64,000 bases of DNA from Clavelina lepadiformis (taxonomy: Eukaryota): positions 18,900,288-18,964,287 of the forward strand of contig NC_135246.1 of the NCBI RefSeq assembly GCF_947623445.1, in the 5' to 3' direction. The notes under the pieces were generated by a model that had not been told where the DNA came from, did no database searches, and saw only the letters and a list, made by a program, of their open reading frames with translations. Positions 2,737 through 46,458 of the stretch are shown in pieces. Position 1 is the stretch's first letter; the number at the start of each line of letters is the position of its first letter. Both the position numbers and the translations under genes were made by a program.

Positions 2737-5700
2737 ATGAATGTTTATGATACAGAACTGGAGGAACATCCCATCGTAACTCAGCAACATCAGAACTACA
2801 GTACCAATGGTGAGTTAGGTGGGTAGCATTGAATTTAATTTAGCATAACTGTATGTTCTGTACCTTTGTGGAATCCACATAATATACCGTTATATGATTG
2901 ATTTTAAGTATTTGAATTGTCTATTCATACACATATTTCTGAAGTAGACATACATGGAGTAACTTTTGAAAGTCTACAAACATAAAAATTTAACTAAAAA
3001 TCCTTTACTTGAATCGTTGTTTTTGTCTATTTTTTTTCATTCGTCAGAAATTCAGAATCATCAGTTACAACAAAAGAAATAAAGCAATCAGATAAAGAGT
3101 TCTTTGACTAGTTGCTATAGTATTATGCTTTTCACAATGCTCATCAAATAGTCAAGGTCTGTACACTCATGCATATGCAGCTGTTAACTGTTGACATCTG
3201 ATTAACACCCTCTACCCCAGGAAAAATTGAGATCTTTGGCTGAGATGAGATGAGGTGAGGATTTGATCATGGCAAGATATGCTATATACAACCCAAATCA
3301 TGAGAAAAACAGAAGAGAGAAAGAGACCGATACAGAATTACTAAAAACATCCACAGACCATCACAGGACAGCTGGTGCAAGTGTTAAAACAGACAATTGC
3401 TGCAGAATGTTGCAGATAGAGTGTAGTTAGTGTGTTATCGTAAGGTTCTTTCAGCTGTCTTCTCGCTGATGATAATGACAATTACTGGCATGTCAATTAG
3501 TGTTTTATCCTAGTCGGTTTGTCTAACTCAAGTTGTTTTATTGCAGGATACCAAGGTTACACACCTGCTGCAGTTTATCAAGGAAACAATGAATTGGACA
3601 GAGATGATGACCCTTATCAACCCTACCCTCAAGGTGTGTATGATTTCATGTGTACGACAACCCAGTCAATTTATTTGAAGACTGGAAGCTCAGTACTGTG
3701 AATAAATATGACATTTTTGCTGAGTAAATCCTACTCTGTTATCTAATCTGGTTTAATTGCATTGGTTGATTGGTTATTCAGTATTCGGATAATCTTAGAC
3801 TAAGGCAAGCCCTATGAATTTTAGGAATGATATGTTTGAAATTATTTGTTAAGATGCATTACTCCGAAATAGGATGCCTACTGCCAGGGAAGCGGCAAGT
3901 GGCATTGAAGAGATTATCATGGAAATGCCAAGCCGAACAATAAGTGAGAATTCCGTTTCCCCGTCACAATTTTCTTCTTGGGCAATTTCATAAACAAATT
4001 TGAGCAAAATTGTTGAAAACTGATAATTAAAGTTATTCACAAATAAAGTGGCCAGCATTTACATTAGCATTTACATTAGCATTACGTTAGCATTACGTTA
4101 GCATTGCATAGGCCACTAATAATGTTCAAGCTTTTATCCCACTGCAGTTGTTTTGACAAATAATGATGTGTAGCAGGTAAATGTAATGCCAATTTTCTAA
4201 CAGGCAGAGGGATGGGTGGCCATATTGGAACTATGGTCAACGCTACCTTGGCCCGGCGAAGTGCTTCTAGGTATCGCAAACGTCAGTTGGTTACGCAAGG
4301 TACTTTTGATGGAATAGAAAGACCGAACGATGAAATTCAAGAACTTTATGAGGAATTGGCCGATGAACAGACTGGAGGTTAAAACATAAAAAATGCTTAA
4401 GTTTTATTTATCAAATTAAATTCACGTTTAATTCAATTTTTTTTTGAAGTAAAGTTCAGCGCATTAAGACTCCGTTCAGACTAACAGGCTGTGACAGAAC
4501 AAAGAGTTGTTTTACTTTCTATTGTTTTGCTACTTTTATTCATTCTGCACGTTATGTCTTGTTTTGGTTGAATAACTTTTTGATTCGTATAAAAACATTT
4601 TGTTCTTTCAGAAATTGACAATGAAGAGCTCCGACAATTTCCAGTCAGCATGGCCGTGAAAAAACAAGTCAGGTAATGGCTTAGGCTTCGTCTTATTTTC
4701 TTTGTTATTATCATCAAATTACGAATATTTTTATAGTGCGCTGAACATTTAAGATTGTTGATAATGGACATTTTAATTTAAACAGATCTCACGCAAATGA
4801 AAACCGTGAAAAGAAAAAGTCCAGGACCGTTGGTTCCTTTAAGATATGGAGATATAATATGTCAATAGTAAGTGTACCAATTTTTGTGTTAATTTGTAAG
4901 TTGTAGCGGAGATAATTCCATGTCATATTGTAAACAGTGGTTGATTTGTGCTCTTGAAGTCCTGTTTTATTTTGATGTTGTTTTTACAAAATTTGATACT
5001 TCTGTAGTTGATTTCAAACGTTCTGGTGTTAGCTGTTGTGTTTTCTAAGTGGTGTTTTTCAACTAAACTCACAAAGCCTGATGTGATGTCATAATAGGTA
5101 GCAGGAAGTGCCACTTGAATGTGGTGTGTTCACATAATAATAGCTGTTCCATTGTGCATTCTAAAGTGCTATTTTGTCGTTAACGACTGCAGTTCTTGAC
5201 AAAACATTGCACTTAATCTAATGATTGCTTGCCAGTTGCTTCACGCAGGAGCCTAAGATCATGTTTGTTTTAGAAATGGCGTCATTTTAAACAAGACACC
5301 AAGAAATTTGCTCAAAACTTTCGTCTCTGGCAGCACGACCTGAAACAAGTGGAAGGCCACTTTGGCACAGGTATACCATTGTGAGGTCATAATACTACAA
5401 CATCACGTAAATTTGTACAATGAATATTTTCAGTATCCAATAATGTACTCTTGTGTGATTTTTGATTTCAGTCTATTTTCCCAAGCATTGTGACAAGATT
5501 AATCAAATATATGCTTTTATTTCAACAATAAAGTCACCATTTTAAAATTAGATTTTTCTGAAGAGTAAACTTTAAAGCAGTGTTTAATACTGCTGCAGGA
5601 GTAGAAAGAATATGCCAGTGCATGGTTAATAATGTATATGGGCATATGGCATGAGTTATCAAAAGCTGAATTGGGTAAACACTGGGTGCTTTAACTGCTC

Positions 5701-8700: not shown

Positions 8701-11700
8701 TCCGGTTTCAGTGAAAACCACGAAACACAAACACAGCTAATACACTTATAAGCATAAAAGTGCACATTTTTTAACATAAACTTAAACAACTACTCATTAC
8801 AATGCAAATTAAAAGCAAACTTCTAAAAGAATGTTCAATTGAAAGGTGGAGTGCTGGGAAACTGAACTTGGGCAAGAAATTTATCGTCTGGTCATCATTG
8901 ACTTTCTATTCACAATCTTCTTTGCAACATTTTGCGCTGAATTTTTGAGAAAGTGAGTTGTTTTTAAAATGTAAATGTGAGAGCAGTGCTTCACTCTGTC
9001 TAATGCCTTTTTGAAACATTGTATGGATATTGGATGCATAATGTGCTTAGTGCATGTTTAGTTACAAAATCTACGTCATCAAAGGCAACTTTGATGCATA
9101 ATACATAACAGCTTGCAACATACCGCAGGCTTCTCGTGCTCTTACTTGATGGCAAGGAAATGTGCCGAAAGTTGGATCGGGCTGAATTTGCCATCGTCAA
9201 CAGTGTCATGGACTTGATATACGGACAAACTCTATGCTGGTATGTGCTTTAGTCTTGCGCTGAACAGACAACTTGGCGTGTATGAATTGTTTGATTATCG
9301 TATTTAATAGATCAAGTAGCTAGTAAACATGATTAGTTAAGGGGTTATGCTTTTTTCAGGATTGGAGTCTTTTTCTGCCCCCTGTTGGCCGGCATTGTCT
9401 TCATCAAATACTTTTTCATGTTCTACATTAAGAAGGTAACGCTTGACCAGACAAGTCAAAATAGAAACATTAGCTACAAAATTCTAATTGAAAATGCAAC
9501 TTACTAATTAATAAGTGTGTTCGGACAGTTTGCTTGCAGTGATTTCTTGTTTGGCCCAAATGTTTCCCATAGGACCGAGAAAATTTGGTTGGTTAATAGT
9601 CGCTAACGGCAAAACGTTGGAAACGTGCTTCTCTGTTGATCATTTTTATGCTTGAATAGTTTGATTCCTGGATAAATGTCGTAGTCTAACATGATATATG
9701 CATATGCTTTTCACCACGCTTCTTAAGAATAAACAGTACTTTTGCCTGTAGTTAACAACGTAACTTGCAATTTAGCGACTACGGCAGCTAACCACCAGCC
9801 AATGGCTAATGCCAACCGGCTAACAGCTAAAGATAATCAACTAAATTACCAGCCCTAGTTTCCTGCACTGTGAGTGCAATTTTCCCAAAACCTACAAAAT
9901 AACATACTTCGTAACTTTGTTAACTTAATGTTGCCTAAAGTAGATATTTCAAAGCAATTTGATTGATTTTAGAAAATGCTTATAGAATAAAAATGGTTAC
10001 ACCAACTCTGGATATCTCAGGTTATAGAGCAGATAATTCAACCCTACAGCATTGAGCTTTAAAAGCCTACGCTGCATATTCAGTTTTATTGTGCTCCTTC
10101 ACTGGTTTACCATCCGACTTCTTGAATTGAGATCATTTTCAGGTGAGCGTGATGCAGAATTGTCGTCCTTCTCGTAAAAGATGGAGAGGTGGACAGAGCC
10201 AAACAATCTTCATCGGACTGCTCTTGCTGAGCTTCCTGCTGTCTGCTATATTCTTGTGTGTCGTTGTGTTCAGGTTTGTGTTCCTTGAGTATCTTTTTCT
10301 AGTGTTCTGAGTACTCTTTTCTGTGGCTGTGAGTGCCAGTTTTACTGACAACCACTCTACAGATGCTTCGGCTAGCATCGAATCCTTGTTTTACAAGAAG
10401 TCTTACATAGAAGTATAACTACATGAATGTACAATGTACATTTTAACGTGCATAACTGATCGTATTATTATTTTATGTGATGTCATTAGGGAAGTCCCTT
10501 CCACGGCATGTGGACCATATCGTGATCAAGATCGAAGTTACGATGTCGTGGTAAATCTATTTAACTCGCTTTATGCAACGTCGTCAGGACAGTGGTTCGC
10601 GACCATCATGGATATAATTTTCAGTGTCTGGTTCCTCTACTCGGTTGCTGCTGGACTTCTGTAAGTTCCAAACTTCGTGCAACTTTTAGAGAAACTTACA
10701 TGCGCTTTGTGAACATCTGTAAATAATAGCAGCCTGATTTTTTATGGAAAATAATAAACCACTATAATCTACAGACTTACGCGTTTAAAATATATTTCCC
10801 AAAGTTTTTTGATAAACATTTCATCCTCACCAGAATTTGAATGCTAAGTAGCATGGTGATAACATTATTTACATGTCAAAGTCTGATCGTTGTTACCAAC
10901 AATCGAGTTTAAATTAGCGATCAATTGACATCATATTTCATGCAGAGTGTGGGCAGTCATAAAAAGCAGCGAAGCGAAGGGGTACGAAGAGCTTGTGAGG
11001 TCACTTCGAGCTCAAATTGAGCTGCAGGGCGATGACAAACAACTTCTTCTCAAGTGGCTTCAATCGACGGTCGCCAACCAGAACGGGAAGCCTCCTCCCA
11101 CTGGTGGGGCTTTCCAGGGCGGGAAGGAGAATGTAATCGCTTGTTATGTTTTGTTTGAATCAAGACTAGGATGTATTTGTGTGTTGTTGTAACCAGAGTG
11201 TTGAACTGGAGCTGAAGCAACTGTTCAATCACGATTTAGCATCCTGGTCATAGCCTAAATTGTGTTGTTACCAAGTTTTTTTTATCACAGACCCACCCCT
11301 GTTACCTGTTCTAATTGCGCTGAACAAATTCAAAACTCGCTCGAAGAATATTACAGCCATTTACCACAGAATTCTTTTGCAGCATGTCATTCCTATCCTA
11401 CATCATCGTGACTCAGCAAAAAGTACACCCTGTCCGTCCCGATCCGCATCAGCGAGAAACTCGCCCAAGCATGACATCAATGCTCCAATGACTGGCGACG
11501 TCTTGACCTACGTTGACCCCCAGCATGTGCAGGCCAGCCACTTGGTTGGAGAGAGAATGGTAAAATAGAAATGTTATGAAATAGCGCAACATTTATGAGA
11601 CTTACCTGAAGCTCATGAAAGATAAATCACACCACTCCTTTGAACAAATTCTAGCCAGATTGCACTTTAAAGGATATTCAACAAACCTGCAACTTTATCA

Positions 11701-12989
11701 TGATAATGCTGTGATCTTGTTGATATAATTTTGCCTATTTTGCAGCTTCTAGTTAACCTGATAAAAATGTTATAACATAGCAACCTAAATATTTCTTTTA
11801 AAATCTAAATCTAATTTCAATTAAACCCTGAATAGCTAAAATCAACTTTCTGCATACCCATTCTCCTCGCCAAACCGCATAATTTTAGCAATAGCCTGTA
11901 TGACTTAATTAATATGATGGAATAAACTTATTTCTATATAATTAAGCGATTCTTTCAATGGCTTGCAACTTGCTGATACAACATTTTCTTTGGGCAGATG
12001 GCTACAACATCATTTTCAAATCCCTCGCAGATCTCGCTGAGACAGAGAGAACACAAGGATCCTTTGCTACACAAGGCGCTGGCCAATCAGCAACGACCAC
12101 GCAGCATGTTCGTGGAGGGTCAGTGGCTCTTATTGACTCCGTTTATTGTCGTTGTTATGAGGTCATAATGTTTATTTATGAAGTGAGGAAAGTCTTTGCA
12201 CGACTTAAACTCAATGATGGTTCTTCATTGCCCAAGCCCAGGTTACCGAGCTTGTCTTTGGTGCAAGTTCCAAACAGCAAACGTTTTTATTTGTTCTTGC
12301 TGTAATGCCCAAATTTAGAACTGTTCACTTGATCCACTGAACAGGAACATCGTTGATGCCTTGCCTAAGGGCATTGAACACAGGTCGCAATTGTGTGCCA
12401 AGTGCTCTAAGCACTACCAAGCCCACCATAGTGTTGTTATTGCTTCGGTTTCTGTCCAAAGAGTTAGGTTTCAACACAAAATTGACGGCGTTTGCTTTTC
12501 GCAACTAACATTCCTAATCTACTCCAGCTGGTTACGGCTAAAGCAATAATACGGCCAATTGCAACTAGAAGAAAAATTCTATAAACGACCTTCCAATGTG
12601 TAAGATTTTGATCAAGGTTTTATTGCACAGGTGTGCCATCGTCTTACGACACACAGAGAAGAAATAGCTTCGCTGGAGCTTCTGTGGACTTGGAAGACTT
12701 GGATACGGTACGAACCATGAATCTATTGTAAATGCTGTGAAACGGAGATGAAACCCCTGTTACCCCAAATGATTTGTAAAAATTCGATTAGATAGTTCAA
12801 ACTTGCTGGACAACTCAGGTTTGTAAATGATGAAAAAAAATCTTTTTGCATCAGGAAACCGTCTACGAGGAAATTTTAAGTGATCCAAATGGTCCATCTC
12901 CACTATTGCTTGCTCTTTCGGCCAAAGTTCAAGCGGAAAAAAGTCAATCAAGTGAGCAGCGGCCTGGTTACGGTCGTGGCGGATATTAG
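2737..12989 (+). CDS. Transmembrane channel-like (TMC family) protein, about 919 aa, 22-exon model
   Basis: Exons (+): 2737-2809, 3547-3633, 4204-4377, 4612-4672, 4786-4867, 5274-5370, 5754-5914, 7174-7322, 7523-7670, 7829-7993, 8082-8233, 8492-8591, 8846-8953, 9112-9239, 9360-9435, 10143-10273, 10490-10660, 10946-11132, 11383-11559, 11999-12119, 12631-12707, 12855-12989 (stop TAG). Summed length is 2760 nt, divisible by 3, and the splice phases chain consistently through all 22 exons with GT donors and polypyrimidine-AG acceptors. Diagnostic TMC motifs: exons 6-7 give ...LWQHDLKQVEGHFGTGVSSYFTFLRGLF (compare TMC ...[20 protein letters not shown]); exon 8 gives MYYGYYINGT; exon 9 gives KVFCAWDFGI (TMC CSWDY); exon 13 gives VECWETELGQEIYRLVIIDFLFTIFFATFCAEFLRK, the TMC-domain CWETxVGQElYrL signature. 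Seen in sequence: the first ATG at 2737 follows an in-frame TAG. Which TMC paralogue this is cannot be decided by eye. Confidence 0.75.
4055..4103. repeat. Short tandem repeat (about 12-mer catttacattag / cattacgttag, 4 copies) in a TMC intron
   Basis: catttacattagcatttacattagcattacgttagcattacgttagcattgcatagg. Confidence 0.7.
8846..8953 (+). CDS. TMC exon 13 encoding the TMC-domain signature (CWET...GQE.YRL)
   Basis: ag|GTGGAGTGCTGGGAAACTGAACTTGGGCAAGAAATTTATCGTCTG...GAGAAA|gtgagt translates to VECWETELGQEIYRLVIIDFLFTIFFATFCAEFLRK. This is the hallmark motif of TMC proteins (established family knowledge). Confidence 0.85.
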
Positions 12990-15780
12990 AGAACGCCACG
13001 CAACGTTTGGCAGGTTTCTTGGCTGTTATTTGTTTTCAATATTAATGATAATGCCGTTCCTTGTTGTGTTAACTTTGAACAAAGGATCTTCTCTTAACTT
13101 TCCTGCATTCGTACTTTGATGATAATTTTAATGACAGTTTTTTACTGATAGTTGTAATTTCTACAATGTGCAATCCGTAATGTGTGTGACTTGGTAACAA
13201 TCGTACTTTCTAGTTCATAATTATCAATGCTTATCGCTGTGCAGTGCTCTGTGAAATTATTAGTAGAATCTTCAATTGTGACATTGTTGAAGTATAAGCT
13301 GCATCTTGCTGCATTTTTGTTTTGAGTATTCAAGCTATTTAATTCTGCTAATCCATGGCAATCATCTTTTTTATTCGCTTGCAGAGTTATATTTTTGTTG
13401 TAAATTTCCCATTTTATTTTGCAACACTGTCTTCATAATTGTGCACTTTTGAGAACCCACGATTTTTGAAATCATGTCATGAGGTTGATTTCTTGTATTT
13501 TTGCTCAGTAGCTTGTGCTATAATTATTAATGCTTTGAACTTGCTTGGGCGAAAGCAAAATTTTAAATGTTTTAATTGAAATCTTTGGGTAATCTTCTGT
13601 TGATATTTTTTATCTTATGCCTTGTATCATGAAACAAACATTTTTCTTGAATGCTCTGGTATTGTGAAACCTATCTTGACGTTATGTAAATTGTAGAAAC
13701 AAGTCTAATTTCATTCTGTCTTCCAAAACTATTTTATTTGTTCGTGGGCAATAAGCATTAATATGTTGAGTTAGTTATATCAAAAATCCTAGAAATAACC
13801 TGGTATAATAATGTATAAGTTTGCCGAAAGCCAGTGTGTCCATGTATTCCCTGAAGCCAGCATATTTCTTCTGGAGTTGAGCTTTAATGCTGGCAATACT
13901 ACACGTCTTTTGCAAGAATCGCAGCCATCCATTTCGTTATTAAGTTGTTTGTTTACAAAAAAGGTTACAAAGATATTTGTCAAACTCTTTAAGCGATTAA
14001 ATATGAAGCTTTGAGATGGGGTTCTCATTTTATGCAGAAATAACAAGAGATTTAGCTGATTGCACGAGCAAAACTGCTGGTCATCAGAATTCGACTGTAT
14101 AAGCCGATGACAGTAACCTTTCATTTAGTAATGGAAACAAGTCTTAATAGTCTTGACACAAGTCGAGTCTTTATAATTACAATCCAAAGTCAAGTCGAGT
14201 CAGTAACGCTTATCAAGTTCAAGTCTTAACACATGTCAATTCACAATTTATTTTAGGTTGAAAGTAAACGGCTTTCTGAATACACATAACATAAATACAA
14301 GCATAAAATCTCATTTCTGACGCTTTTTGTCATTCAGTAGATTGTCTTGCATAGTGATTTTTGAATAAATTGTAAAACTTTTTTACAAATGTAAAAACGA
14401 ATTTGAAATAATTTGTTTTGTGACTCGAGTCAACTCAACCAAAATTTCCATGTTAACACGAGTGAAGTAGAGTCTTTAAAGCACTAAAACCCAAATGAAG
14501 TCTTTCCACAAACCTGTCTTCCGTTTTTGCTTTCATTACAACAGGTTAATTTTATTGTTATGAGATAGCTCATCTGGCTGACATGGGGGCGGCTTGTTCA
14601 TATTACAAAAAAATGGGTTAATGAAAGGTTTTAGTGGTCCAAGAATGATATACTTGAATTGCTTTCATTGTTTGAATAGAAACACTTTTTAATTATTATC
14701 ATATTTTCTGCATTTCAATATCACCAGCGAACTTCAAAAGTAGTTTTTAAAACTACATGATTTTGAATAATCACAAAGCATCAGTTAAAAGATTGTTATT
14801 TTCATTTTTTCATGACAAGCATTCCAATTAAGTACCTAAACATAACAATAAACCACAATGAGTTCATATTGTATATTACGGAATCACAGGAGTATAATGT
14901 GCTGTCTATGTTTGGTTGTAGAGGTGTAATATCATTTATTGATAACACGGTCAAAACACAAATCATTTAAACGAAATAAAAACATTCATTGCAAATAAAC
15001 ACGAAAGCTTAAAAACAAGGCATCGTTGTGAATGATTAACTATGTGACATGAAAAGTGATTGTTTGCGATTGGTTTAACATCTGCAGCTTATGCTTATGT
15101 GATTGGCAAACTTTGTGCACAAAAGCAAACATATAAAAGCTTGCGCAGGTACTGCAATGATATGAAACACTTTTATTAAACCATTCCTGATTTTCCAGGA
15201 ATTTTCACTGGCAACAACAGTTCTGTGTTGAAAACACAATGACAAAATGACCAAAACATCGCATCGAAATAAAATTAGTTGGTAATTAAAACTCTAAGTG
15301 ATAAATACGTGCACCAAGGTGAACATGCTTATATACAAAATATATATAAGCAAAGAACTTATTTTATTGCACTTCTGCTTTATTCTATATTTGGTTGCAA
15401 AAAGACAAATTACAACCGGTCTAGAATTTTGAACAGTCAAATTATATCTGACCAAATGTCGAGTATATCAAAGCAAATTACCTCCTATAAGAAATAAATA
15501 TTTGCAAAAAAGCTACACAACATTGGATGATGCAGAGTAGTAACAAGAATCAATGATAAAAGAAAGTGATTAATTACCACAAACTTATAATTCATCACAG
15601 ATTAAGGAGTTTGAGTAGGCTTGTCTGGTTAACCCCCTCACATGATACTGAATCAATGATAAATTTAACAACCAAAATATATTTCTTGATCTAGAGCTTA
15701 ATACAAGTTGAAGGAACAGGGGGTTTATTTTGCAACTCGACAAGGAATAAAGAACCATTCTTGCATTAAGAGCAGAAAAA

Positions 15781-18700
15781 TTATGGTTTATAATTTGCAT
15801 CGTTTATGGTAACTAGACAGGAGTAATGGCAGTTTTGTGGTAAAAGTGGAATTTTGTTCATGATTCGAGTGGGAACTGCCCAAACGCTAAAAGAGTTTAA
15901 GTTGTAGACCCCGGCTGACGAAATACACGCTTTCATAGTTACCGTGTGGGTCTTTTTAGGCTGCATAGTAAATTTCGATAAACATTTGCCGGCCCACAAA
16001 AACCTAGTACTGGCAGCTGGTATTCCAGTGGTCTGTGTTTGATTTGAGTCCATTCCATTAACATCGACATTCAGTTCACAGTCGTATTGATTTTGCAAAA
16101 CAATCTTAACCTTTACAAAGCATGCACCGGAAGTTATAAAATCATGCTGCTTGCTTCTTTCAAATTCCAGTTTCCATTTGACGAGCTGATGCAGAGCAAC
16201 TAAACTCTGACTGCTATCTTCAGCTGCGTTCGAGTTCTTTAGGAGTCCGATTTTCGACAACGAAACTTTGCTGTCGACCAACTCAGACAAGTGCAAGTAA
16301 TGTTGGCCAACCAGGGTTTCACCTTGACACCGAGCCTGCCATTCCAGCGCTACGAGCAGGTAACCAGGATTTTCTGGGGATAAAATATTTCCAAAGTCTG
16401 ATACAGATTTGAAAGAAAGATTGTTTCCTTCAACAGAAAACGCAGATGAAGTCATTCCAATTTTTTCAAGAAGGTCAAGCTTCTGTAGGTTTCCTTCCAA
16501 ATTTTCATGAATGTTATTTGCTTCGAAATAAACTTTGGCTGATTGAAAGACATCTATTTCTGGTGATGGTGTCTGTGATATCGCACCTAGCACCCAGTCT
16601 TTGGAACTGCACAAAAGTTTTGCACCGTTGAATGCACAAGACTGACTTATGTTGGTCATGTTGACCGATATCAAAGCTCCTTGCCTACTGTTGTCCCAAT
16701 TTACAAGAGGTTGCACAGATAACGATGGCCTTGTAAAAACATCATTACTGTATTTCAACGTCCGAGATTTCAACTGTCCGTCAATATTACCGGCCGATTC
16801 GTAATAAAAATATAAATTCAAGGGATGAATGTTGTCACTGGATGGCGCGTGTATCCAACATAGAAGCTCCACACTTTCATTTGGTTTTAGCTCTCTGTGG
16901 ACAAGAGTCTGTACTTGACAGACTTCACCTTCATATGACTGGCCAGTCACTCTCAAGAAGTGGGCCTGGGCATCAAGTAAAGTCTTGTCAGGGGGGGTGA
17001 AAAGGCATTTTGTGTGAGACCCATATGCAACCTTCACATTCTTCATGTTGCACTGGCCAATATTCGCAAGACAAACTTTATTTGACTTGAGCTCTCCACA
17101 CAACATCTTATGAGGAAAATTTTCATAAATCACATCCAGTTTGGGAGCAGATGGACATACACGGATGCTGGTATTAGCACCGGACCGAAAAAGCTGCTGT
17201 CCGGTTAAATCAAGTGTTGAAATGCTGGTCTGTGACGTAAATCCTGTAAGTTTTGCGATGCTGAGTTGGTAAGAGATCCCAACAAGCTGAAGGTCACCAA
17301 CGCTTTGCGGATTTATTTCAAATGTTAAAACATTTGTGGAGTCCTCCGGGATAATAAACTCCTTAATAGGTGGAACATTGATCTCAGCTTCTGATTCGTC
17401 TTCTTTTGTGAATTTATAGATCAAACCGACATTGGCAAGGGACAACGCAACTTGCAAGGGGTTACAAACAGTGACATCTACCCAAAGGAGCTCGTTAACA
17501 ACAGCTTTAAACGACGAAGACTTACCAATGCCAGTGAAGATTGATGAATTTTGTGGCGATTCTTTCGTGACAACAGTCTGAACAGACTCCTCCAATAACT
17601 TCCATTTAGAGTCGGGAATTACACTTCCGCCAGATGTTGCGTTGCGTGCTGCTATACTAGAATGGTTTATGAGAGGAACTGGAAGATTGGTGACAGCTTT
17701 TGTGGCTTCAGTGTTTCTCTTGGCAACCTGGAGGTATTCGTGAAGAAACATAGCTTGCTGGCTGGTGGGCTGTTTGGAGCCATTGAGCAGTTTACTAAAT
17801 GACTCACATGCAACTTCTAGCTGCTTCAAATTAAACGACTGCCTGCCAATGGTAAAATTGATGTGATCTTCTGCTAAGTTCCACCCACTTCCTCGATAGA
17901 CCTGTAAGGCAGACCTGTAGCATAAAAGGGCACAAGAACGTTGAGAAACTTTTCCATATCTATGTCCAGCTAGCACAATATGAAAGGCGAATTTTCGAAG
18001 CTGAGGCTTCTGGGTACGTAGAAAGCAGTGTGCAATTTGCTCCAGTAGTATTGCACTTCTGAGGTCATCCACTTCACTTGTTAGACGAAAAAGCTGAGCA
18101 GATGCTTCAGCGTACAAGCCCTGCATTCGAAGACATTCGAGACTAACAAGACCACATCTTAAAGCCAAGTAATCGTCGCTGGTTGTAGTAGAATAAGTAT
18201 CGATTGCTGAGTCCACGTAATGGGCAGGATACGCTCTTTGTGAGCGCGGTTGCATGAAGTTGGCTAGTGCAGCCATTTCCGAAGCTCCAGCAGCGTGAAT
18301 CCATACTTGCTCATTAGCGAAATCTTTTCTAACGGCGTGGTAGTAATGATAGGCCTGATCGTACATCTGACAGAGAAAATAAAGATCTGCTAATTTCCGA
18401 ACTTGCAGTTCTGGTGATTCCAGGCCACCACTGCCATAGTTTTTCAGTGCGGGGGCACTGGATGTCTTTCCTCCACCAAAAAAGGTCCGCGTTGCCCTGA
18501 AGATGGATCGATGTATTGCTTTTCTTGATGCAATTTGTTCACTGAAATTGCGAATCAACTTTTCGATGTGAGGGATCAGTCCACGAGAAGCAAAATCGTG
18601 CATAAATGTCTTCAACCCCTCATGATCGGCCAAGGTGAGACAGCATCCGTATCCTTTATCAGAGATGTTGGCTTTCTGTTTCAAGTCTTGCATCCACTTC

Positions 18701-19566
18701 TTATCAGACGGGTGCACTTCGGTGGACGATACGGAAAGGGGGTCAGCTGACAAATCATTAGACGGAATATCGGACATGTTAATGCCGTTTGCTTCAGTGG
18801 CCATCTCTGGCAGTTTGCGATTCAGGAAACATCCCCATGGATCAGGTAGTTGCTGAGTCTCACTGGCATCTTTGGAATTGATGCGCAGAAGGTAGCAGTT
18901 GTTGTTTCCGTACATAGATTGAAGATCATTCATCACAGACTTTGCTCTTTCAAAATCGGGGTGAGAATTATCATGCAGAAGGACGTAATACTTCAAAGTA
19001 TTTGGTACCATCCATCGCACCGAGTGATGTTGAGTGCTGTGCTGTATTTGATTTTGATGTTGGCTAAGCTTTCCAAATTCTTCTACCGGATTCGGATGAC
19101 GAGATGAAACTACCAACATGCAAGCTGGACAGTGGTTGATGAACTCGTGCGGCTTTTGTGGAGCCGTGGCTGTCAAAGTGTCACGATATGCTTCAAACCA
19201 AGGGCAAGACATGTTGACTGCAACGCTGTAGCCATCTGATGAAAGAGAAAGCGTCTTTGATGTTTCTAATATATTGGCCGCGTCACTCACTACATCTGAC
19301 AACAATTGTTTAACGGCATTTTCATCGGCTGGGGAACATCTCATATCACATGTTGTTATGTGAAGATCACGGATAACATAAGCTTGGTTGTTGGAATCAT
19401 GAACGTGTATCTCGGAGTTAATCGTACAAAATGGACGAATTAACTCAGCGAACGAAAGATTATTTCGACGGCTTATGATCTCGGCATCTTGACTGCACAG
19501 AACTCCCACTCTTGGCCCAAACAAAGTCTTAATGAAGCCATCAGTACTTTGTGAGCACTGAGACAT
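15781..19566 (-). CDS. TRAPPC8: Trafficking protein particle complex subunit 8 (TRAPPC8 / Trs85 homologue), 1261 aa, single uninterrupted exon
   Basis: ORF-track ORF of 1261 aa. The N-terminus MSQCSQSTDGFIKTLFGPRVGVLCSQDAEIISRRNNLSFAELIRPF parallels human TRAPPC8 MAQCVQSVQELIPDSFVPCVAALCSDEAERLTRLNHLSFAELLKPF. Conserved internal blocks include NHCPACMLV, IPNTLKYYVLLHD, GCCLTLADHEGLKTFMHDF..GLIPHIEKLIR, PELQVRKLADLYFLCQMYD, FHIVLAGHRYGK and AEDHINFTIGRQS. AATAAA sits about 50 nt 3' of the stop on the - strand (about 15727-15732). A possible acceptor tttttatag lies just 5' of the ATG on the - strand, suggesting a 5'UTR intron. Confidence 0.9.
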   Translation of the reverse strand: MSQCSQSTDGFIKTLFGPRVGVLCSQDAEIISRRNNLSFAELIRPFCTINSEIHVHDSNNQAYVIRDLHITTCDMRCSPADENAVKQLLSDVVSDAANILETSKTLSLSSDGYSVAVNMSCPWFEAYRDTLTATAPQKPHEFINHCPACMLVVSSRHPNPVEEFGKLSQHQNQIQHSTQHHSVRWMVPNTLKYYVLLHDNSHPDFERAKSVMNDLQSMYGNNNCYLLRINSKDASETQQLPDPWGCFLNRKLPEMATEANGINMSDIPSNDLSADPLSVSSTEVHPSDKKWMQDLKQKANISDKGYGCCLTLADHEGLKTFMHDFASRGLIPHIEKLIRNFSEQIASRKAIHRSIFRATRTFFGGGKTSSAPALKNYGSGGLESPELQVRKLADLYFLCQMYDQAYHYYHAVRKDFANEQVWIHAAGASEMAALANFMQPRSQRAYPAHYVDSAIDTYSTTTSDDYLALRCGLVSLECLRMQGLYAEASAQLFRLTSEVDDLRSAILLEQIAHCFLRTQKPQLRKFAFHIVLAGHRYGKVSQRSCALLCYRSALQVYRGSGWNLAEDHINFTIGRQSFNLKQLEVACESFSKLLNGSKQPTSQQAMFLHEYLQVAKRNTEATKAVTNLPVPLINHSSIAARNATSGGSVIPDSKWKLLEESVQTVVTKESPQNSSIFTGIGKSSSFKAVVNELLWVDVTVCNPLQVALSLANVGLIYKFTKEDESEAEINVPPIKEFIIPEDSTNVLTFEINPQSVGDLQLVGISYQLSIAKLTGFTSQTSISTLDLTGQQLFRSGANTSIRVCPSAPKLDVIYENFPHKMLCGELKSNKVCLANIGQCNMKNVKVAYGSHTKCLFTPPDKTLLDAQAHFLRVTGQSYEGEVCQVQTLVHRELKPNESVELLCWIHAPSSDNIHPLNLYFYYESAGNIDGQLKSRTLKYSNDVFTRPSLSVQPLVNWDNSRQGALISVNMTNISQSCAFNGAKLLCSSKDWVLGAISQTPSPEIDVFQSAKVYFEANNIHENLEGNLQKLDLLEKIGMTSSAFSVEGNNLSFKSVSDFGNILSPENPGYLLVALEWQARCQGETLVGQHYLHLSELVDSKVSLSKIGLLKNSNAAEDSSQSLVALHQLVKWKLEFERSKQHDFITSGACFVKVKIVLQNQYDCELNVDVNGMDSNQTQTTGIPAASTRFLWAGKCLSKFTMQPKKTHTVTMKACISSAGVYNLNSFSVWAVPTRIMNKIPLLPQNCHYSCLVTINDANYKP

Positions 19567-19822
19567 CTTTAACTCTCACAATAGTTTGCTCCTATAAAAA
19601 CAAAAATGTTTGTTTTTGTTCCAGTTCAATAAAAACACTCCATGTATACCAACTTCAAAATTCCATCAAAATTGAACCATAGGCTATCAAGTATTGGCAA
19701 GGAATGGTCACATAAAAAACACTGTCAAACATTGGGTTATCAAGTTATGTACAGATTTAATGTAAAAATACAAATAGGGTAAGATAAACTGAACTGGTGC
19801 AACAGACCAAAATTAGCACATA

Positions 19823-20297
19823 CAGTCAGACCTCGTTAATCCGGACCACTTCGCTTCGTCATAAAATGTCGGTTTAGCGGGGGTATCCGGATTATCGGAA
19901 AGCGAAAAATCAATCAATCTTGTAAATGTAGCACTGTGTTCAAAAAGTAGTATGCACCTTACTCCAATTCTAAGTATGCGTAGGAGTTTAAAGAGTGGAA
20001 CTGCAACATTATTATGTGTAGATTATCGGCTATAATCGGCTATTTTCGTCAACTAACTACTGTGTCTAGGACAATCGTGAATCATTTTCGCTTCACTCTC
20101 AATAATCCGGTTTGTCAGAATTAATTGCTATTTATTTAGCACATTTGTTCCAAAACTTTTGTGTCAGAGTTGGACAGCAGGGTTTCCAGATTAAAGGGGA
20201 AAAATGCATAGGAAGAAATCTGTTCCCGGCATTTTTGTGTCGGATAACGGGGATTCCGGTTGTTCAGAGTTCAGATTAATGAGGTCTCACTGTATGT
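19823..20297. mobile_element. MITE-like non-autonomous element with about 25-bp terminal inverted repeats and nested internal inverted repeats
   Basis: The left end tacagtcagacctcgttaatccgga pairs with the right end tccgg..cagattaatgaggtctcactgtatgta (reverse complement tacatacagtgagacctcattaatc). Internal inverted copies of ccggattatcggaaagcgaaaa and ttttcgcttcactctcaataatccgg are also present. It has no coding capacity. Confidence 0.55.
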
Positions 20298-22387: not shown

Positions 22388-22911
22388 CCGAACGGTTAAA
22401 ACCAGGGCTTTGGAGCCGGAGCTGGAGCCCGGAGCCGGAGCCCCGGAGCCGTGCATTTTCAAAGGAGCTGGAGCTGGAGCCGGAGCTCTTCGTGAAATTC
22501 AAATGGAGCCGGAGCAGGAGCTGGAGCCAGTTGTTTGAAACATAGCTCCGGCTCCGATGTATTTCATAAGATGCTATGTTACTAGCCTACTACTATTGGC
22601 TGAATTCACATAATTTAAGAGCAACCCTTCACAAAATTAAGAATTACTGGGGATTTGACAGCAGAGCAGTCACATGTTCATAGTAGCAACCGATGGTACT
22701 GACTACTGACTGACCCATTGAGCTATATATTCCAAATTGAGCCTTCATCCTTAAACCTCAGTTTGTGACGTAATGGAGCCGGAGCTGGAGCCGGAGCAGT
22801 GGTATCAATGAGCTCCGGAGCTGGAGCTGGAGCTAATTTATGATAAAAGAGAGCTCCGGAGCTGGAGCTGGAGCAATTTAAAATTTACGCCTGCTCCGAA
22901 GCCCTGGTTAA
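22388..22911. mobile_element. TIR-bounded element carrying (GGAGCY)n hexamer arrays
   Basis: The left terminus gttaaaaccagggctttggagccggagc (22388) is inverted at the right terminus gctccgaagccctggttaaaac (about 22890-22911). The interior holds four blocks of GGAGCC/GGAGCT hexamer repeats at 22411-22450, 22470-22500, 22770-22800 and 22815-22880. The ORFs in this interval (22211..22462 -) are repeat artefacts. Confidence 0.5.
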
Positions 22912-23296
22912 AACGCCCGGCACACAGTAAAATAATGTCACCCGATTCCGATACCTATCGGCTTTCAAGTTATAACGTTTTTCAGCAACGTATAAAAATC
23001 GCTTACTTTTGATCAATGATCCTGCAGGGTGGACCAAGCAATTTGTTACAAAAATCAAAAACAAACGCAATGTTTTATGTAGCAAAATTGATCAATTTAC
23101 GCGCACTAAGTATTATAAATATACCTTTTCACATAGGATCAGTAACGTTACATAGGCTTGTAATAGAAAAATAATGATTAGGCCTACGTTACACAGTAGA
23201 CTACACACCGTTTAGGTTAATTACCACAAACATCCACCACTTCGAGGTAAGCCACAAATTAGGCAAATTTTGTTGGATAAATTAAGTAGCACTATC

Positions 23297-25239
23297 TCAT
23301 AGATTTGATGAAAGCTTGAAGTATTCTGCAGCAAGTTCGGTCACTTTTTGTGCGCAACCCCAATGCTGAGCTATACCTCTTGGACCGTGCCCGTAATTGT
23401 GGATGATTGGAGTTTTCCTATTTCCTCCCTTTGCGCTGATAAATTCAACTTCAACCCGTGGACCACTAATGCGTCCAGGTGCTATGCCAACGTCCACTTT
23501 ACGGATTTCGCCTGCTTTCAGCGCTGGTGAAACGGCCTCAGCTTGCCGCAGAATATTGTTTGGATCCTCGGGCTCTATTTGACAATTCCATCTTCCCACT
23601 TGATAAACACCAGCAACCGCCGTGTCGTTTCTTCTTGGGACAATTACAATGTGATTAGCACAAAAACATCGCTTCACTGGGCATGTTAAGCTGAAGTATT
23701 GACCTGAGAAAAAATCTTACCTATAGATAGCCTAATTAAGAAAGTTACTATTTCACCGTACGTGGGCCAAGACGAAACAGAGGTTTAAGACATCCTAAAA
23801 GGATAGATATCGCAAAAGGTTGATTTTAGGGGTTTTCTTAGGGTTTTAAAGTTAGATTTAAATTAGAAGAAAGATTTAGGTTACTACGTCACAGTATAGG
23901 CCTAATGTTCAAATTAGGTTAACAAAAAAAGGAAGAATAGTTTCGAACGTTGGCTGCGAATTCTCCGGTGAAATAGTGACAGCCAGTAACCAAATAAAAC
24001 AATTTCAATCGAGTTTAGCAATTTTCACTTCAATCTATCTTGAAGAAAATCACACATTAAATGTTTACTGTACATTGACAAGCGGTTGTGGATTACGAAA
24101 CTGATTTTTTCACCTCTCATAGGAAGCACATATGGATCATCGCATAACTCTCTAGCGCCAACGCCCGAGCAATTAATAATCAAATCACATGGTTGAAGAT
24201 CGCTAAAATGAACCAGTTTTCGATTCACAAAATTAACCCTTTTTATTCTTCCATTGCTATCAAGGAAAAAATTAAAGTTTTAAAATAAAATACTTTTCAG
24301 ATTGCCAACACTTTTTTCGTATAAATTTTCATTTTTTGTTGAAGAGACACAAACCTCTTTGTCAATTCGTCCAGCCTTCTTCTCAGCCAAGGCAGGTAGA
24401 CGGTGGGATCGATGACGTAATGATGACTTATGTAGCCTTGCAAAGAAACATTGCTGATGTTATTGTCTTCTAGAACCTCCGCCAGTCCGCGGTTCTTTTC
24501 TACGTACCCTGCTTCTTGCATTTCGCGCTCCGTCGCTCGGCGAACGTCGATTCCAGAACCAATCAGGTTTGTAACTAGACAGAAAGCAAGATAAAGCCTT
24601 GTTAGTCGCACAAACATCTTCCAGGTTACCCGGGAGAAGAATAACGTAATCCCGCAGAAGTAAAGCGGTTTTGTTTAGGGCTATTGGCCGAGTCACGAAC
24701 CTTCAACGGGCGTGACAGGGCCCCGTTTATGAGCCTTCCTTGTATTATTCTCGTGAAAATTAATCAAAGAGAATATCTCCATTAACTCAATGCCCCGCTC
24801 TCTAGCTTCCTCTGGTGACAAATCATGACAGTAATCACGTGTTTTTTGAACGAATTTAGTGACGTCATCGTGGTCCATTATACCCAGCTTTCGGGTAATG
24901 ACTAGGCCAAAACCATGTTCGCTGAAATAAGTAAATGAATATTTACACCAAATTAAATGAGGTATCGAGGTATAACTGAAATAATGGTTTTCTCCAGAAT
25001 AAACACCCTTCCAATAATGCGGTTTTACACACATCAATTTTATTTATTCATAAAGTTTTTGATTGAATTTTTTCATTTTTAAACAGTATTCTAAATTCGA
25101 TAATTAATCGAGATTACCTACAATTCCCGGTTTCATTATCAGCTGACGTGATCGTGATGTCACAAAACGGAAAGCGTTCTGCAAGGCAATAAGCTGCAGA
25201 AAGTCCATTGATGCCGGCACCAACCACTTCGACTTTCAT
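23297..25239 (-). CDS. D-amino-acid oxidase family protein (DAO/DDO-like), about 366 aa, 5-exon model with C-terminal -SNL (PTS1-like)
   Basis: Exons (- strand, approximate): 25117-25239 (MKVEVVGAGINGLSAAYCLAERF..., a Rossmann GxGxxG FAD motif), 24701-24921, 24354-24574, 24102-24256 (DLIINCSGVGARELCDDPYVLPMRGEKI, compare DAO DVIVNCTGVWAGALQ..PGRGQI), 23297-23676 (...TPIIHNYGHGPRGIAQHWGCAQKVTELAAEYFKLSSNL*, compare DAO [23 protein letters not shown]). The C-terminal tripeptide SNL matches the PTS1 of human DDO (established knowledge). The upstream in-frame ATG at 25329 would add 30 aa that are unlikely to be real. One exon boundary is off by 1 nt in my hand model, since the total is 1100 nt. 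Confidence 0.7.
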
Positions 25240-41399: not shown

Positions 41400-44300
41400 A
41401 AATGCTCTTCACAATCGTGATGTCACAATGTTGTCGCCTTTTGAACAAAGAGATTTATAAATTAAAGTGTGCTTTACAGATAGCTAATTTTTGTAGTTTT
41501 TGTCACAGTTTGTAGATATTAGTCGTCACTCTAGAAAAACAGAATCTATTTATAATACTCGATAAAAAAGATTGATTATTTCTCTTTTTGTGGGGTATAG
41601 TTTTGCACGAGTGAAATTCAGTGTTACCGTAAATTCCATGTAATCCAAAGTGTTATCAGCTTTGCCCATGTTTAATGCCACGCTATTATTTATATCCATT
41701 ACACAGTGAACACATTTAAGCGCAAATTGCCATTTTATGAAATGTTTCATGTATATCTCATTTTCCACTTAACGAATAAACCATAATATTATGATGATAC
41801 ACATGATATCATATTCAGTAGAATATTTTTTTGCTGTAGTACTTCTTAGCTTAGCCATACTGCATTGAAAATGTTTAGCATAATTCAATATTAGCGACCA
41901 CTTGTCTTTCAAAGCTGCTACAAACACTGTGTTTCAGTGGTTTGCAAAAAATATTTATTAAAATATGGTGCAAATACCGTTATAACTTTGTTTAGAAAAA
42001 CTTAAAAATTGTCGTTTAAATCTACTTCATTTTATGATATTCCTACGGCTTGGCATGAAATTTTAGCATCAGCCATATTTTGTGATAACCGAAACTTAAT
42101 GTTGAGCACGTTTTGAAAGTTTTTCGCACGTTTGTCGAATTTGCCGATGTGCTGTCAGAGTTAATCACTAATGCACTGTCGTTACTGCGCAATAAAATGA
42201 AAACGTTTTGAATCATGTGCAACAAGGACTGAAACAAAATATGGTCGCCCAAGTCTGGGTGTTTATTAATCACAGAATAGAGATAGTGTCAAAGAGACCA
42301 AGCGCTGAAGAGAATTGCCAAACGCTGTCTCGTTTCGTTTCTTCTCTTGGAGATTTTACTCCAAACCCTTGTAGTCAGCCATATACTGTATACACCAAAG
42401 TCGCGCCAAGTCGAGAGAATCGAGTTATTCCATTAAAGTTCGTGTGTTGTACAAGTCTGTGCTGGCCTCACCTTTCTAAAAGAATAAGCGTTTATATCAG
42501 CACTTCAAACAGCGGTCAGTATAGAGGCAAAACGATTACTTGGTCGGAAAACTGCGCTATGAGCTAAATGAAAAAAAGTGTAATATCTTTCAAAAAGTGT
42601 CATATCCTTGGATTAGGTAGATTTTGAACTTAGCGTTACAGACACTCAGGACAACTTGTATAAGTAACCTTATCAAGATAAATTGAAATAGCCTGCTGTG
42701 GGCTAGTTACCCAAGCCTAAAGTAAAGCTTTTTGCTGATTATCTTCTAATTTTACTGCAGTTTCATGCCAAGCAACTATAATCAGCTTTTTTATATGAAT
42801 TATTTCATAACAACCGTTTGTCTGAATTTATCTAAATAAGGAGCAGGTGACCTACTTTTGGTGAACTATTCGCTTCCTTTTCTGACCATGTAGCACGTCA
42901 CAAAAAAAACAAACACAAAAGTGGATTATGTTATACTGTAATGATATAATACGGACTTAATGTTTAAAAAGAAAATTAATTTCATAAACACCAAAGTTTC
43001 TGTTTCATTCTTATACAGTTCTATTCCAAAATATCCAATTACAGTAATAAATAAATAAAAATTATAGCTTTACTAACGAATCGTTTGCCGCATTATATGA
43101 TTTCTTTGTAGGGAGTTTCCCAAAGTTGATGTTAAAGGTTCCATTTTTTATAAAAAGATCATTGTATTGGTTAAAGCACGACGCAAATATTTATGTAACA
43201 AACCTTAAAAGTTTTTGCTTCGTACTTCATACATCATACTGCAAGGTATCTACACACAAACATATGCTAAATAAATAAAGGCCAGTCGTCTTAAAAAGAG
43301 CTAGCTTACTGAAGTTTAGACTGCTTGTTAAATTTAACCACTCGACGTCTTTGAAAATGCTGTATGCTTTGGGGTATGTGCATGCACAGAACTTAACAAG
43401 ATGAATCTTGGAAATTAAATTAATGGAAGTTTAAAACATAATTCTTAAATATAATTTAAATAAATTTTACAAAACTTTCTAAAACAATTGATTACGTTGT
43501 CGGTGGATAGGTTTGCATGGGTACCACAAATAAAAAGCTAATTTTACGAATAAAGTACAACAGAATGAAGCTGTTTAATTAAGATCATACTTTTAGGGAT
43601 CATTTCTATAGTATGTTTCTTGAAAACGTCATTCAAGCATGACAAAACCCCAACTACGATGATGAGTTGAAGGGTTTTTTCCTGAGCATGAAGCTTGATC
43701 GGATGTTGCTCTTCGGAGCAATTTCCGGTTCTTGAGGAATGTTCTTTGCTGCGCTTGTCGCTAGCGAGGAGGGAAGGAACTCATTCTGAGTAGTTTCATC
43801 TAAATTTACAAAATTCAACTGTTCTAGTAACCACTGCTTGATGTAAAATGTGGAATGAATAAACTTGCTTTGCTGTAGTGGAAATTTGCAAACGTACAGT
43901 TGTTGGGCAAATGCAATTGAGATGGCGACCGGTTACAGCCGGAAGTTATAAATTTCACTAAATATCTTACTCCGGTACCTCAGTCAAGTTACCTTATTTG
44001 CTACAGTCCTAAACTTCTAATTGATTTACATCTAACGTGAAAACTTTTTTCTTATTTTCAACGCTTAGTAGATATTTTGTTGCCGTCGCCGCTCATTGCC
44101 CGGCCACGATGTTAGTTGCAAGCAAAACTATTTTTGGTCATAAGAATCGGGATGTTTGTTGTCTTTGCAAAAGAACTCGCGCAAGACTTTTAATTTATTG
44201 TGAAAATATGATGAGGAAAGTAACGCATTTCCACAGGACAACGATATACACTAGAAAAAAATTTCTCTTTAAATTCTTGCCAAATGATTTTGAAATTAAG

Positions 44301-44902: not shown

Positions 44903-46458
<1,556 letters not shown>

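Follow-up and report, generated by a model that had tools for sequence, protein, structure and literature searches.

A single-coding-exon TRAPPC8 gene in Clavelina lepadiformis and in nine other tunicate species

Our analysis shows that the TRAPPC8 gene of the tunicate Clavelina lepadiformis has a single, uninterrupted coding exon, and that the same is true of all nine other tunicate species sampled, so the intronless state is a feature of the lineage. We put the probability that the trait is ancient and lineage-wide, and that the gene is functional, at about 95%. The coding sequence (CDS) was already intronless when inherited from an ancestor of at least all ascidians sampled; the trait originated neither at this locus nor within Clavelina. 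Most likely all of its coding introns were erased early in tunicate ancestry by a single event mediated by reverse transcriptase.

The TRAPPC8 gene and its neighbours

The DNA analysed here ("the window") is a 64,000-nt stretch of the C. lepadiformis genome (assembly GCF_947623445.1, NC_135246.1, positions 18,900,288-18,964,287). Its features near TRAPPC8 are as follows, numbered from the first nucleotide of the window.

8852..12111, plus strand: TMC, a multi-exon gene, 3' part, tail-to-tail with TRAPPC8 (motif; tblastx)
8852-8863, plus strand: TMC exon with the CWET signature (motif)
10479-10706, 10944-11078, 11443-11544 and 12037-12111, plus strand: conserved TMC exon blocks (tblastx matches to relatives)
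15724..15729, minus strand: first AATAAA hexamer, 51 nt past the TRAPPC8 stop, with more AATAAA further downstream (sequence)
15781..19566, minus strand: complete TRAPPC8 CDS, single exon (ORF, Pfam, protein identity, collinearity with fish)
15783-15781, minus strand: TRAPPC8 stop codon TAA, after 1261 codons
19566-19564, minus strand: TRAPPC8 start codon ATG
19576..19578, minus strand: in-frame TGA, 12 nt 5' of the ATG (sequence)
19592..19608, minus strand: 3' splice-acceptor-like site, a pyrimidine tract then TAG, with G as the next nucleotide: ttttgtttttatAG, then G (sequence)
23297..23677, minus strand: last coding piece of a DAO-like (FAD-dependent oxidoreductase) gene, upstream of TRAPPC8 (Pfam DAO, E 1.8e-7)

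In the ORF listing of the window, 15781..19566 is one unbroken frame of 1261 amino acids that begins with ATG; it is the longest by far (the second longest has 256 amino acids), and we estimate the chance of 1261 stop-free codons at about 1e-34, taking about 6% stop codons at the local base composition. Its product is identical over its full length (100%) to XP_076818289.1, [quoted passage not shown], and an independent second annotation, CAK8671239.1, is also 1261 amino acids long. The Pfam TRAPPC-Trs85 profile (PF12739) matches amino acids 12-482 over profile positions 1-452 of 453 (E 3.4e-107; 359.8 bits, cut-off 26.7), and the C-terminal TPPC8 Ig domain PF24542 matches amino acids 1128-1230 (E 2.3e-22). 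PF24544 scored 25.7 bits in our profile scan, under its threshold of 27.8, and is, with PF24545, among the precomputed Pfam matches of the identical protein; PF24546 has no match in any tunicate TRAPPC8 protein in the precomputed Pfam listing. The top PDB match is Drosophila TRAPPC8 (7b6e; E 9.5e-75, amino acids 317-615). Fish TRAPPC8 residues 1-1377 align with the Clavelina ORF in a single tblastn HSP, as do Callorhinchus residues 1-1403; the protein is collinear with its vertebrate counterparts, 33-36% identical to them over its full length, and shares their conserved N-terminus M-S/A-Q-C-x-Q-S, but is about 150-200 amino acids shorter (1261 versus about 1400-1480). It is thus a full-length homologue of TRAPPC8/Trs85, the TRAPPIII-specific subunit, and resembles the known members of the family (human TRAPPC8, Drosophila l(3)76BDm, 7b6e) in having both the TRAPPC-Trs85 N-terminal region and TPPC8 Ig-like domains. 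Homology to 7b6e and strong purifying selection (below) suggest that it has a role in TRAPPIII assembly, ER-Golgi traffic and autophagy.

The absence of coding introns, which a sequence-only reading of this DNA had reported, is borne out by the ORF, the Pfam matches, the identity to XP_076818289.1 and the collinearity with fish. There is no N-terminal extension and no coding exon upstream, because an in-frame TGA lies just before the ATG and the first methionine is invariant in an alignment of 13 tunicate TRAPPC8 proteins. It is conceivable that one or more stop-free, in-frame introns are spliced out of the long ORF, so that the gene is not truly single-exon. We give this next to no likelihood: the Clavelina protein has no insertion of its own of at least 4 amino acids relative to 12 other tunicate proteins, the fish and Styela proteins align with it end to end and collinearly in one HSP, and the two independent annotations both yield the whole 1261-amino-acid product. 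If the picture given below holds, the gene model in this window is correct, and the locus itself has nothing unusual about it.

The neighbourhood was said to be rich in introns, and in kind it is: TMC, TYMS and the DAO-like gene are each split over several pieces. The DAO-like piece listed above covers only the C-terminal third of its profile (positions 251-353 of 353), and the TYMS motifs, about 26 kb from TRAPPC8, are spread over at least four separate ORF pieces (45411-46341, minus strand). The METTL27-like methyltransferase gene at 48181-48891, also reported as single-exon, is indeed one ORF. In Ciona, 15% of the genes outside operons and 38% of those within them are single-exon (PMC2760879), and because such genes are common in ascidians the contrast between TRAPPC8 and its neighbours is less exceptional than it seems. 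TRAPPC8 resembles these Ciona genes in being a single-exon ascidian gene for a conserved protein with an acceptor-like site shortly before its ATG. It does not appear to be an operon gene of the Ciona type, which has a same-strand neighbour at an intergenic distance of less than 100 bp (PMC2760879); the nearest recognised same-strand coding piece, that of the upstream DAO-like gene, is 3.7 kb from the TRAPPC8 ATG, and TMC, which lies downstream, runs in the opposite direction.

Intron state across tunicates and vertebrates

In every tunicate contig retrieved, the TRAPPC8 CDS is a single ORF, by which we mean that its range equals three times the number of amino acids plus three and that its translation was checked. 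The nine species other than Clavelina are five relatives from the aplousobranch clade, two stolidobranchs (one of them Styela clava), a phlebobranch-like species and one that probably represents a pelagic lineage; Ciona, Phallusia and the appendicularians lie outside this exon-structure sample. The contigs are L001, L002, L003 (S. clava OZ123523.1), L004/5/6, L009, L011, L012, L015 and L016, and several of them are long and genomic (33 kb, 484 kb, 1.05 Mb, 2.0 Mb and 21 Mb). L009 and L011 are short contigs, and their flanks of 1-2.5 kb, free of poly(A), suggest that they too are genomic DNA. None of the ten sampled tunicates has any coding intron, none shows a partial loss, and the trait spans the deepest split among the sampled ascidians, that between Stolidobranchia (S. 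clava) and Clavelina's clade. The ancestor from which it was inherited was probably shared with the pelagic (thaliacean-position) lineage as well. A neighbor-joining tree of TRAPPC8 proteins with vertebrates as outgroup matches the accepted tunicate relationships, as expected of single-copy orthologues descended from one ancestral gene.

The vertebrate gene is very different. In a fish, the TRAPPC8 coding sequence is spread over 21.5 kb in at least 25 separate blocks, compared with one coding exon in Clavelina, and this agrees with the earlier statement that orthologues in other animals are strongly multi-exonic. Relative to fish, the coding introns are truly missing in Clavelina; this one vertebrate locus, together with general knowledge of intron conservation among animals, points to an intron-rich ancestor.

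The sequence-only reading had offered two origins for the single exon, retrocopy or wholesale intron loss, and had added that intronless orthologues in close relatives would mark it as a lineage feature and not a local event. Wholesale loss of the coding introns did happen at some point, probably through reverse transcription of an mRNA; the idea of a local or recent event falls, because the CDS is a single ORF in nine further tunicates. A recent retrocopy or processed pseudogene peculiar to Clavelina, with an intron-bearing parent elsewhere in the genome, has in its favour the bare fact of an intronless CDS amid intron-rich neighbours, and is in our judgement extremely improbable. The intronless CDS is common to species as distant as Styela, and in two relatives (L002 and L016) tblastx finds TMC matches downstream of TRAPPC8 with their order and their opposing strand unchanged. 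The gene is also under strong purifying selection: a comparison of two relatives gave pN 0.105, pS 0.735 and a dN/dS of about 0.04, and 143 alignment columns are invariant over the 13 tunicate proteins. Among the best 120 matches there is only one TRAPPC8-like protein each for Clavelina, Styela, Ciona and Phallusia; the two Clavelina annotations concur on the Clavelina protein, and the 64-kb window holds no second TRAPPC8-like fragment or relic. The marks of retroposition that had been proposed as a check were not found either. There is no genomic poly(A) tract 3' of the gene (no run of A follows the first AATAAA), and no target-site duplication around it, only brief, inexact AT-rich repeats of the kind that chance would give (for example 26 nt at 73% and 17 nt at 82%). 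Their absence is expected after several hundred million years, yet nothing positive points to ectopic insertion. A processed pseudogene or young retrocopy was rejected on the strong purifying selection, the lack of poly(A) and duplications, and the lack of a second copy among the best 120 protein matches and in the window.

The 5' leader and the history of intron loss

The acceptor-like site upstream of the gene has its AG at 19593-19592, so that an exon joined there would start at 19591 and run 25 nt before reaching the ATG. Comparable sites lie no more than 70 nt from the ATG (14-65 nt) in six of eight tunicate loci against 1.9 expected, an enrichment whose thresholds were set after the data were seen. 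The site could equally be the acceptor of a cis-spliced 5'UTR intron or of spliced-leader (SL) trans-splicing. It had been read as a hint that a 5'UTR intron is retained, which would argue against a recent processed pseudogene; the site is real and recurs, but the argument is weak, since an SL acceptor or a de novo intron would fit as well. With ATTCTATTTGAATAAG taken as the Ciona spliced leader, there is no match at the 5' ends of the metatranscriptome contigs L007 and L008 and none adjoining TRAPPC8. In Ciona, 11,797 of 12,615 transcript models whose 5' ends are defined by full-length ESTs are SL trans-spliced (PMC2760879), and retrogenes can gain 5'UTR introns de novo, as amphioxus SYCP1 has done (PMC5803294).

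As the specific mechanism we tentatively favour retrogene replacement, at a little short of even odds. A spliced TRAPPC8 mRNA would have been reverse-transcribed and the DNA inserted elsewhere in the genome of an early tunicate; the retrocopy would have gained expression signals and the multi-exon parent later been lost, and TRAPPC8 would since then have behaved like any other single-copy housekeeping gene, with purifying selection acting on it. Today a short 5' leader, from an upstream non-coding exon or a spliced leader, is probably joined at the acceptor before the ATG. Retroposition removes every coding intron at once, which supports a retrogene origin. The data fit conversion in place by cDNA as well.

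We think it possible, if unlikely, that early in tunicate evolution recombination between the original locus and a full-length cDNA of the spliced message removed all the coding introns but kept the promoter, perhaps with a 5'UTR intron. Intron loss by way of reverse transcriptase is a well-established model (PMC3652778). As in TRAPPC8, such losses are precise and leave the reading frame intact. Such a conversion predicts no poly(A) or target-site duplications at any age, and the recurrence of the acceptor-like site fits a 5' intron that escaped it, although the same site may equally be a trans-splice site or belong to a new 5'UTR intron (PMC2760879, PMC5803294). Typical in-place cases involve one or a few adjacent introns, whereas TRAPPC8 has lost every coding intron. 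Conversion by cDNA usually acts mostly toward the 3' end, and removal of all of the approximately 25 or more introns of a 3.8-kb CDS in one conversion would be unusual. No deep synteny is visible, and the immediate neighbours of TRAPPC8 in Styela (a flavodoxin/FAD/NAD reductase gene and a zinc-finger gene) differ from those in Clavelina (DAO-like and TMC). In human, TYMS and TRAPPC8 presumably both lie on chromosome 18. With TYMS 26 kb away in Clavelina, this hints weakly that the linkage was retained, but a coincidence of that kind is at about chance level among five neighbours.

Piecemeal loss of the introns, singly or in small groups, on the long stem branch of the tunicates, complete before the sampled lineages split and belonging to a general turnover of introns in a lineage that evolves fast, appears fairly improbable. 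Tunicates are listed among the lineages with unusual intron dynamics, mainly for Oikopleura (PMC3488318); in Ciona the mean number of exons per gene is lower in some classes, and 15-38% of genes are single-exon. On the other hand the neighbouring genes in the window retain many introns, all ten sampled species stand at zero with no intermediate, and approximately 25 or more independent losses from one gene, its neighbours being spared, would be far less parsimonious than one event.

Known parallels and significance

Lineage-wide intronless orthologues are already a known kind of event. A close parallel to the retrogene replacement proposed for TRAPPC8 is amphioxus SYCP1, whose coding sequence is one exon of 3.2 kb, whose parent gene is lost and whose multi-exon 5'UTR arose de novo (PMC5803294); in both cases a gene that is multi-exonic elsewhere has one coding exon of about 3-4 kb in one chordate lineage. 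TRAPPC8 also shares with SYCP1 and with "orphan" retrogenes (PMC3548309) the lack of a detected parental copy, a retained function and a 5'UTR that is possibly spliced. It differs in that the new site of SYCP1, beside the ParaHox cluster, demonstrates ectopic insertion, whereas relocation of TRAPPC8 is only presumed, and in that the TRAPPC8 event is older and belongs to a clade at the level of a subphylum and not to one genus.

TRAPPC8 may, in an improbable extension of retrogene replacement, be one survivor of a burst of such replacements on the tunicate stem, enabled by the origin of SL trans-splicing. If so, a promoterless retrocopy in any transcribed region could be capped and expressed once an acceptor preceded its ATG, and retrocopies would survive better in tunicates, even those of very long housekeeping genes. 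This would account for why ascidian genomes and operons have single-exon genes in excess, and the acceptor-like site near the ATG in most of the loci compared would be the footprint of the mechanism.

Our literature search found no published description of an intronless tunicate TRAPPC8. If the picture given here holds, the gene is a clean and datable case in which a housekeeping gene of about 25-30 exons lost every coding intron once, early in tunicates, and the intronless form has been the only detected copy since, on both sides of the deepest divergence in the ascidian sample. TRAPPC8 would then be a useful marker for the timing and manner of tunicate genome remodelling after the split from vertebrates, and a test case for whether SL trans-splicing helps retrogenes to survive.

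The TRAPPC8 coding sequence and its surroundings

In the colonial ascidian Clavelina lepadiformis (Tunicata, Aplousobranchia) the gene for TRAPPC8, the TRAPPIII-specific subunit of the Trs85 family, lies on the minus strand between a TMC gene and a DAO-like (FAD-dependent oxidoreductase) gene.

TRAPPC8 and neighbouring genes (window positions)
8852, plus strand: TMC signature motif CWETELGQE
10479-12111, plus strand: four or more additional blocks of conserved TMC coding sequence
15781..19566, minus strand: TRAPPC8 coding sequence, an uninterrupted 1261-AA ORF with an ATG start
23297-23677, minus strand: piece of the DAO-like gene with only the last third of the DAO domain (Pfam)
45411-46341, minus strand: TYMS motifs, spread over four or more separate ORF pieces
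48181-48891, minus strand: METTL27-like gene, one ORF of 236 AAs that carries a class I SAM-methyltransferase domain (Methyltransf_25, E 3.8e-13)

The TRAPPC8 ORF is the longest in the 64 kb, fivefold over the runner-up (256 AAs), and its GC content is about 0.42-0.43 as against 0.32-0.36 across much of the surroundings. Pfam finds in it a TRAPPC-Trs85 domain (AAs 12-482, E 3.4e-107) and a TPPC8 C-terminal Ig-like domain (E 2.3e-22), and the closest solved structure is that of Drosophila TRAPPC8 (7b6e, E 9.5e-75). Over its full length the ORF is 100% identical to XP_076818289.1 ("trafficking protein particle complex subunit 8-like", Clavelina lepadiformis), and the product of a second, independent Clavelina annotation, CAK8671239.1, is likewise 1261 AAs long. 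An in-frame TGA is present 12 nt 5' of the ATG, and the start of the protein, initiator methionine included, is conserved throughout the 13 aligned tunicate TRAPPC8 proteins. In tblastn the fish and Callorhinchus TRAPPC8 proteins each give one HSP, from residue 1 to near the C-terminus. The ORF, its identity with XP_076818289.1 and its collinearity with the fish protein bear out the single uninterrupted coding exon proposed in the sequence-only reading, and the coding sequence, as judged from these comparisons, is complete in that exon. Introns missed in frame inside the ORF are extremely improbable; the protein alignment contains no Clavelina-specific insertion that could hide one.

The TMC blocks are on the plus strand at 8852-12111, and TMC therefore converges tail-to-tail on TRAPPC8. 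The same-strand upstream neighbour, the DAO-like gene, stops 3.7 kb short of the TRAPPC8 ATG and is multi-exon, since the piece found there holds just the final third of its domain. The coding sequences of TMC, the DAO-like gene and TYMS are all split over several pieces, so the intron-rich neighbourhood described earlier is real, and the METTL27-like gene was correctly picked out as the second single-exon gene of the window. Between the DAO-like gene and TRAPPC8, an element of roughly 520 bp (22395-22914) has 25-nt inverted repeats (84% complementary) at its ends and an interior of GGAGCTGGAGC-type repeats; it resembles a small transposon-like, or MITE-like, insertion. The window also contains a complete gene for U3 small nucleolar RNA at 43581-43794 on the plus strand, about 1.6 kb away from the exons of TYMS; the match to Rfam RF00012 spans model positions 1-219 of 219 and scores 156 bits, where the gathering score is 34.

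TRAPPC8 in other tunicates

Exon structure was compared in DNA encoding every tunicate TRAPPC8 homologue with a contig on record; six loci were translated first and then five more. At every locus compared the gene range equals three times the number of AAs plus three, and the translation is free of stops.

Tunicate loci with a single-ORF TRAPPC8 (locus, protein, source)
L001, P0002: ENA, 33 kb
L015, P0003: ENA, 18 kb
L002, P0004: ENA, 1.05 Mb
L012, P0005: ENA, 2.0 Mb
L016, P0006: ENA, 484 kb
L004/L005/L006, P0009: ENA and JGI metagenomes
L003, P0011: Styela clava chromosome OZ123523.1
L009, P0012: Logan, 7.4 kb (short contig of unspecified library type)
L011, P0096: ENA, 5.9 kb (short contig of unspecified library type)

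The comparison left out the TRAPPC8 genes of Ciona (protein XP_002129871.2, encoded on a 10.2-Mb contig), Phallusia and appendicularians. A scan of metagenomes for loci of more distant tunicates gave only extra contigs of one species already sampled, and an exact-sequence query with the Clavelina protein matched nothing in the contig index. In a neighbour-joining tree of the proteins, with vertebrates as outgroup, Clavelina joins the P0002-P0006 clade (Aplousobranchia), Styela groups with P0012 (Stolidobranchia), a further group has Ciona, and Phallusia with P0009, and P0010 (from Tara metatranscriptomes) and P0096 group together at the position expected for thaliaceans. Judged from these proteins, the branching agrees with the accepted phylogeny of tunicates, as it should for single-copy orthologues. 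The single ORF at all loci and the shape of the tree together map the intronless coding sequence to the common ancestor of all sampled ascidians, from which it would date, and it was probably present in the ancestor of the pelagic lineage as well.

The TRAPPC8 gene of the fish Brachionichthys hirsutus occupies 21.5 kb and has at least 25 coding blocks; the polarity of the change, from an intron-rich ancestor, is taken from this one vertebrate locus and general knowledge. Erasure of the introns did happen (at least 25 blocks as against one exon), but not as the local event that the sequence-only reading had considered. It had itself named intronless relatives as the result that would overturn a loss confined to Clavelina, and the relatives are likewise intronless.

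Clavelina TRAPPC8 is, by all sequence measures applied, a working gene. Between the two closest relatives compared, pN is 0.105 and pS 0.735, with a dN/dS of about 0.04 (an approximate value, given the near-saturation of synonymous sites); the 13 tunicate proteins share 143 invariant alignment columns, and the domain architecture is kept. Among the 120 best matches there is one TRAPPC8-like protein each for Clavelina, Styela, Ciona and Phallusia, and searches of the window with Clavelina, Styela, fish and Callorhinchus queries for a second or relic TRAPPC8 gave nothing better than E = 2.8.

The only conserved neighbour found by tblastx is TMC, in two of nine relatives (L002 and L016) and again tail-to-tail, so TRAPPC8 has been at its present position since before Clavelina split from the clade of these two. 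No upstream neighbour is conserved across the nine, and the neighbours in Styela differ from those in Clavelina. In L016 an RVT_1 reverse-transcriptase ORF (1-706) and a piggyBac-like transposase ORF (DDE_Tnp_1_7, 595 AAs, 3058-4845) are both in the region 5-10 kb upstream of TRAPPC8. The species of L004/L005/L006, which the tree places as sister to Phallusia, differs strikingly from other tunicates in codon composition: its coding sequence (6001-9774 in L004) is 57% GC in a locus of 43-45%, and the other tunicate coding sequences are 37-43% GC.

The 5' end of TRAPPC8

An acceptor-like sequence, ttttgtttttatAG/G, ends 25 nt 5' of the TRAPPC8 ATG and is probably functional. A pyrimidine tract with a YAG site at most 70 nt from the ATG is present in six of eight tunicate loci (1.9 expected), and in four of eight (0.9 expected) at the stricter of two relaxed thresholds; the initial strict criterion (at least 12 of 15 pyrimidines) gave almost no such sites at these loci. 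The relaxed thresholds (10 and 11) were set post hoc, so the enrichment is only suggestive. The candidate acceptor on which the earlier reading remarked is thus present, but it is no proof of a retained 5'UTR intron, because ascidian mRNAs are very often spliced-leader (SL) trans-spliced at an acceptor just 5' of the ATG (this holds for 11,797 of the 12,615 Ciona transcript models whose 5' ends were precisely defined; PMC2760879) and retrogenes can gain multi-exon 5'UTRs de novo, for example amphioxus SYCP1 (PMC5803294). A Ciona-type operon was rejected, the same-strand upstream coding piece being 3.7 kb away as against a criterion of <100 bp (PMC2760879).

A short motif family, ccgga(t/a)..ccg...acacaaaa / TTTTGTGTC(A/G)GA, recurs in several copies 300-700 nt upstream of the ATG (about 19850-20290); these may be regulatory repeats or belong to a dispersed repeat. 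The Ciona SL 16-mer has seven matches in the window with at most three mismatches (among them 53345-53360 and 9481-9496, both plus strand) as against 2.3 expected, and none of 100 shuffles reaches seven; this excess may only reflect AT-rich composition. None of the seven is near the TRAPPC8 5' end, and an SL relic there was dropped as a candidate.

Loss of the introns

All coding introns (at least 25) are absent from TRAPPC8, in ten species alike, and the neighbouring genes have retained their introns. The simplest explanation is a single reverse-transcriptase-mediated event, which would have taken place in an early tunicate. We favour, with a probability of about 0.45, retrogene replacement, in which a TRAPPC8 copy would have been inserted ectopically and the parent gene then lost; complete removal of introns would be automatic, and a close chordate precedent exists. 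Conversion by cDNA, which would have removed the coding introns in place, is rather unlikely. TYMS and TRAPPC8 are 26 kb apart in the window, both on the minus strand, and both genes are on human chromosome 18; their proximity hints weakly that ancestral linkage was retained, a point relevant to deciding between retroposition and loss in place. Stepwise loss is improbable, and a recent local retrocopy is scarcely credible given that the intronless coding sequence is common to nine other tunicate species.

No poly(A) tract was found 3' of TRAPPC8, where the first AATAAA is 51 nt past the stop and no genomic A-run follows, and there is no credible target-site duplication among the direct repeats spanning the gene, which are short, imperfect and AT-rich. 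Such missing scars are uninformative for an event older than the deepest split among the sampled ascidians, which is several hundred million years old.

Single-exon genes make up 15% of non-operon and 38% of operon genes in Ciona (PMC2760879). At 3.8 kb the TRAPPC8 exon is at the long end of this class, and this one exon contrasts with roughly 25-30 in the vertebrate gene. We found no description of an intronless tunicate TRAPPC8 in the literature, and the recent tunicate genome papers examined do not mention introns, single-exon genes or retrogenes. Events of the kind seen in the intronless tunicate TRAPPC8 are already known, and the erasure of its introns is ancient and lineage-wide rather than local to Clavelina.
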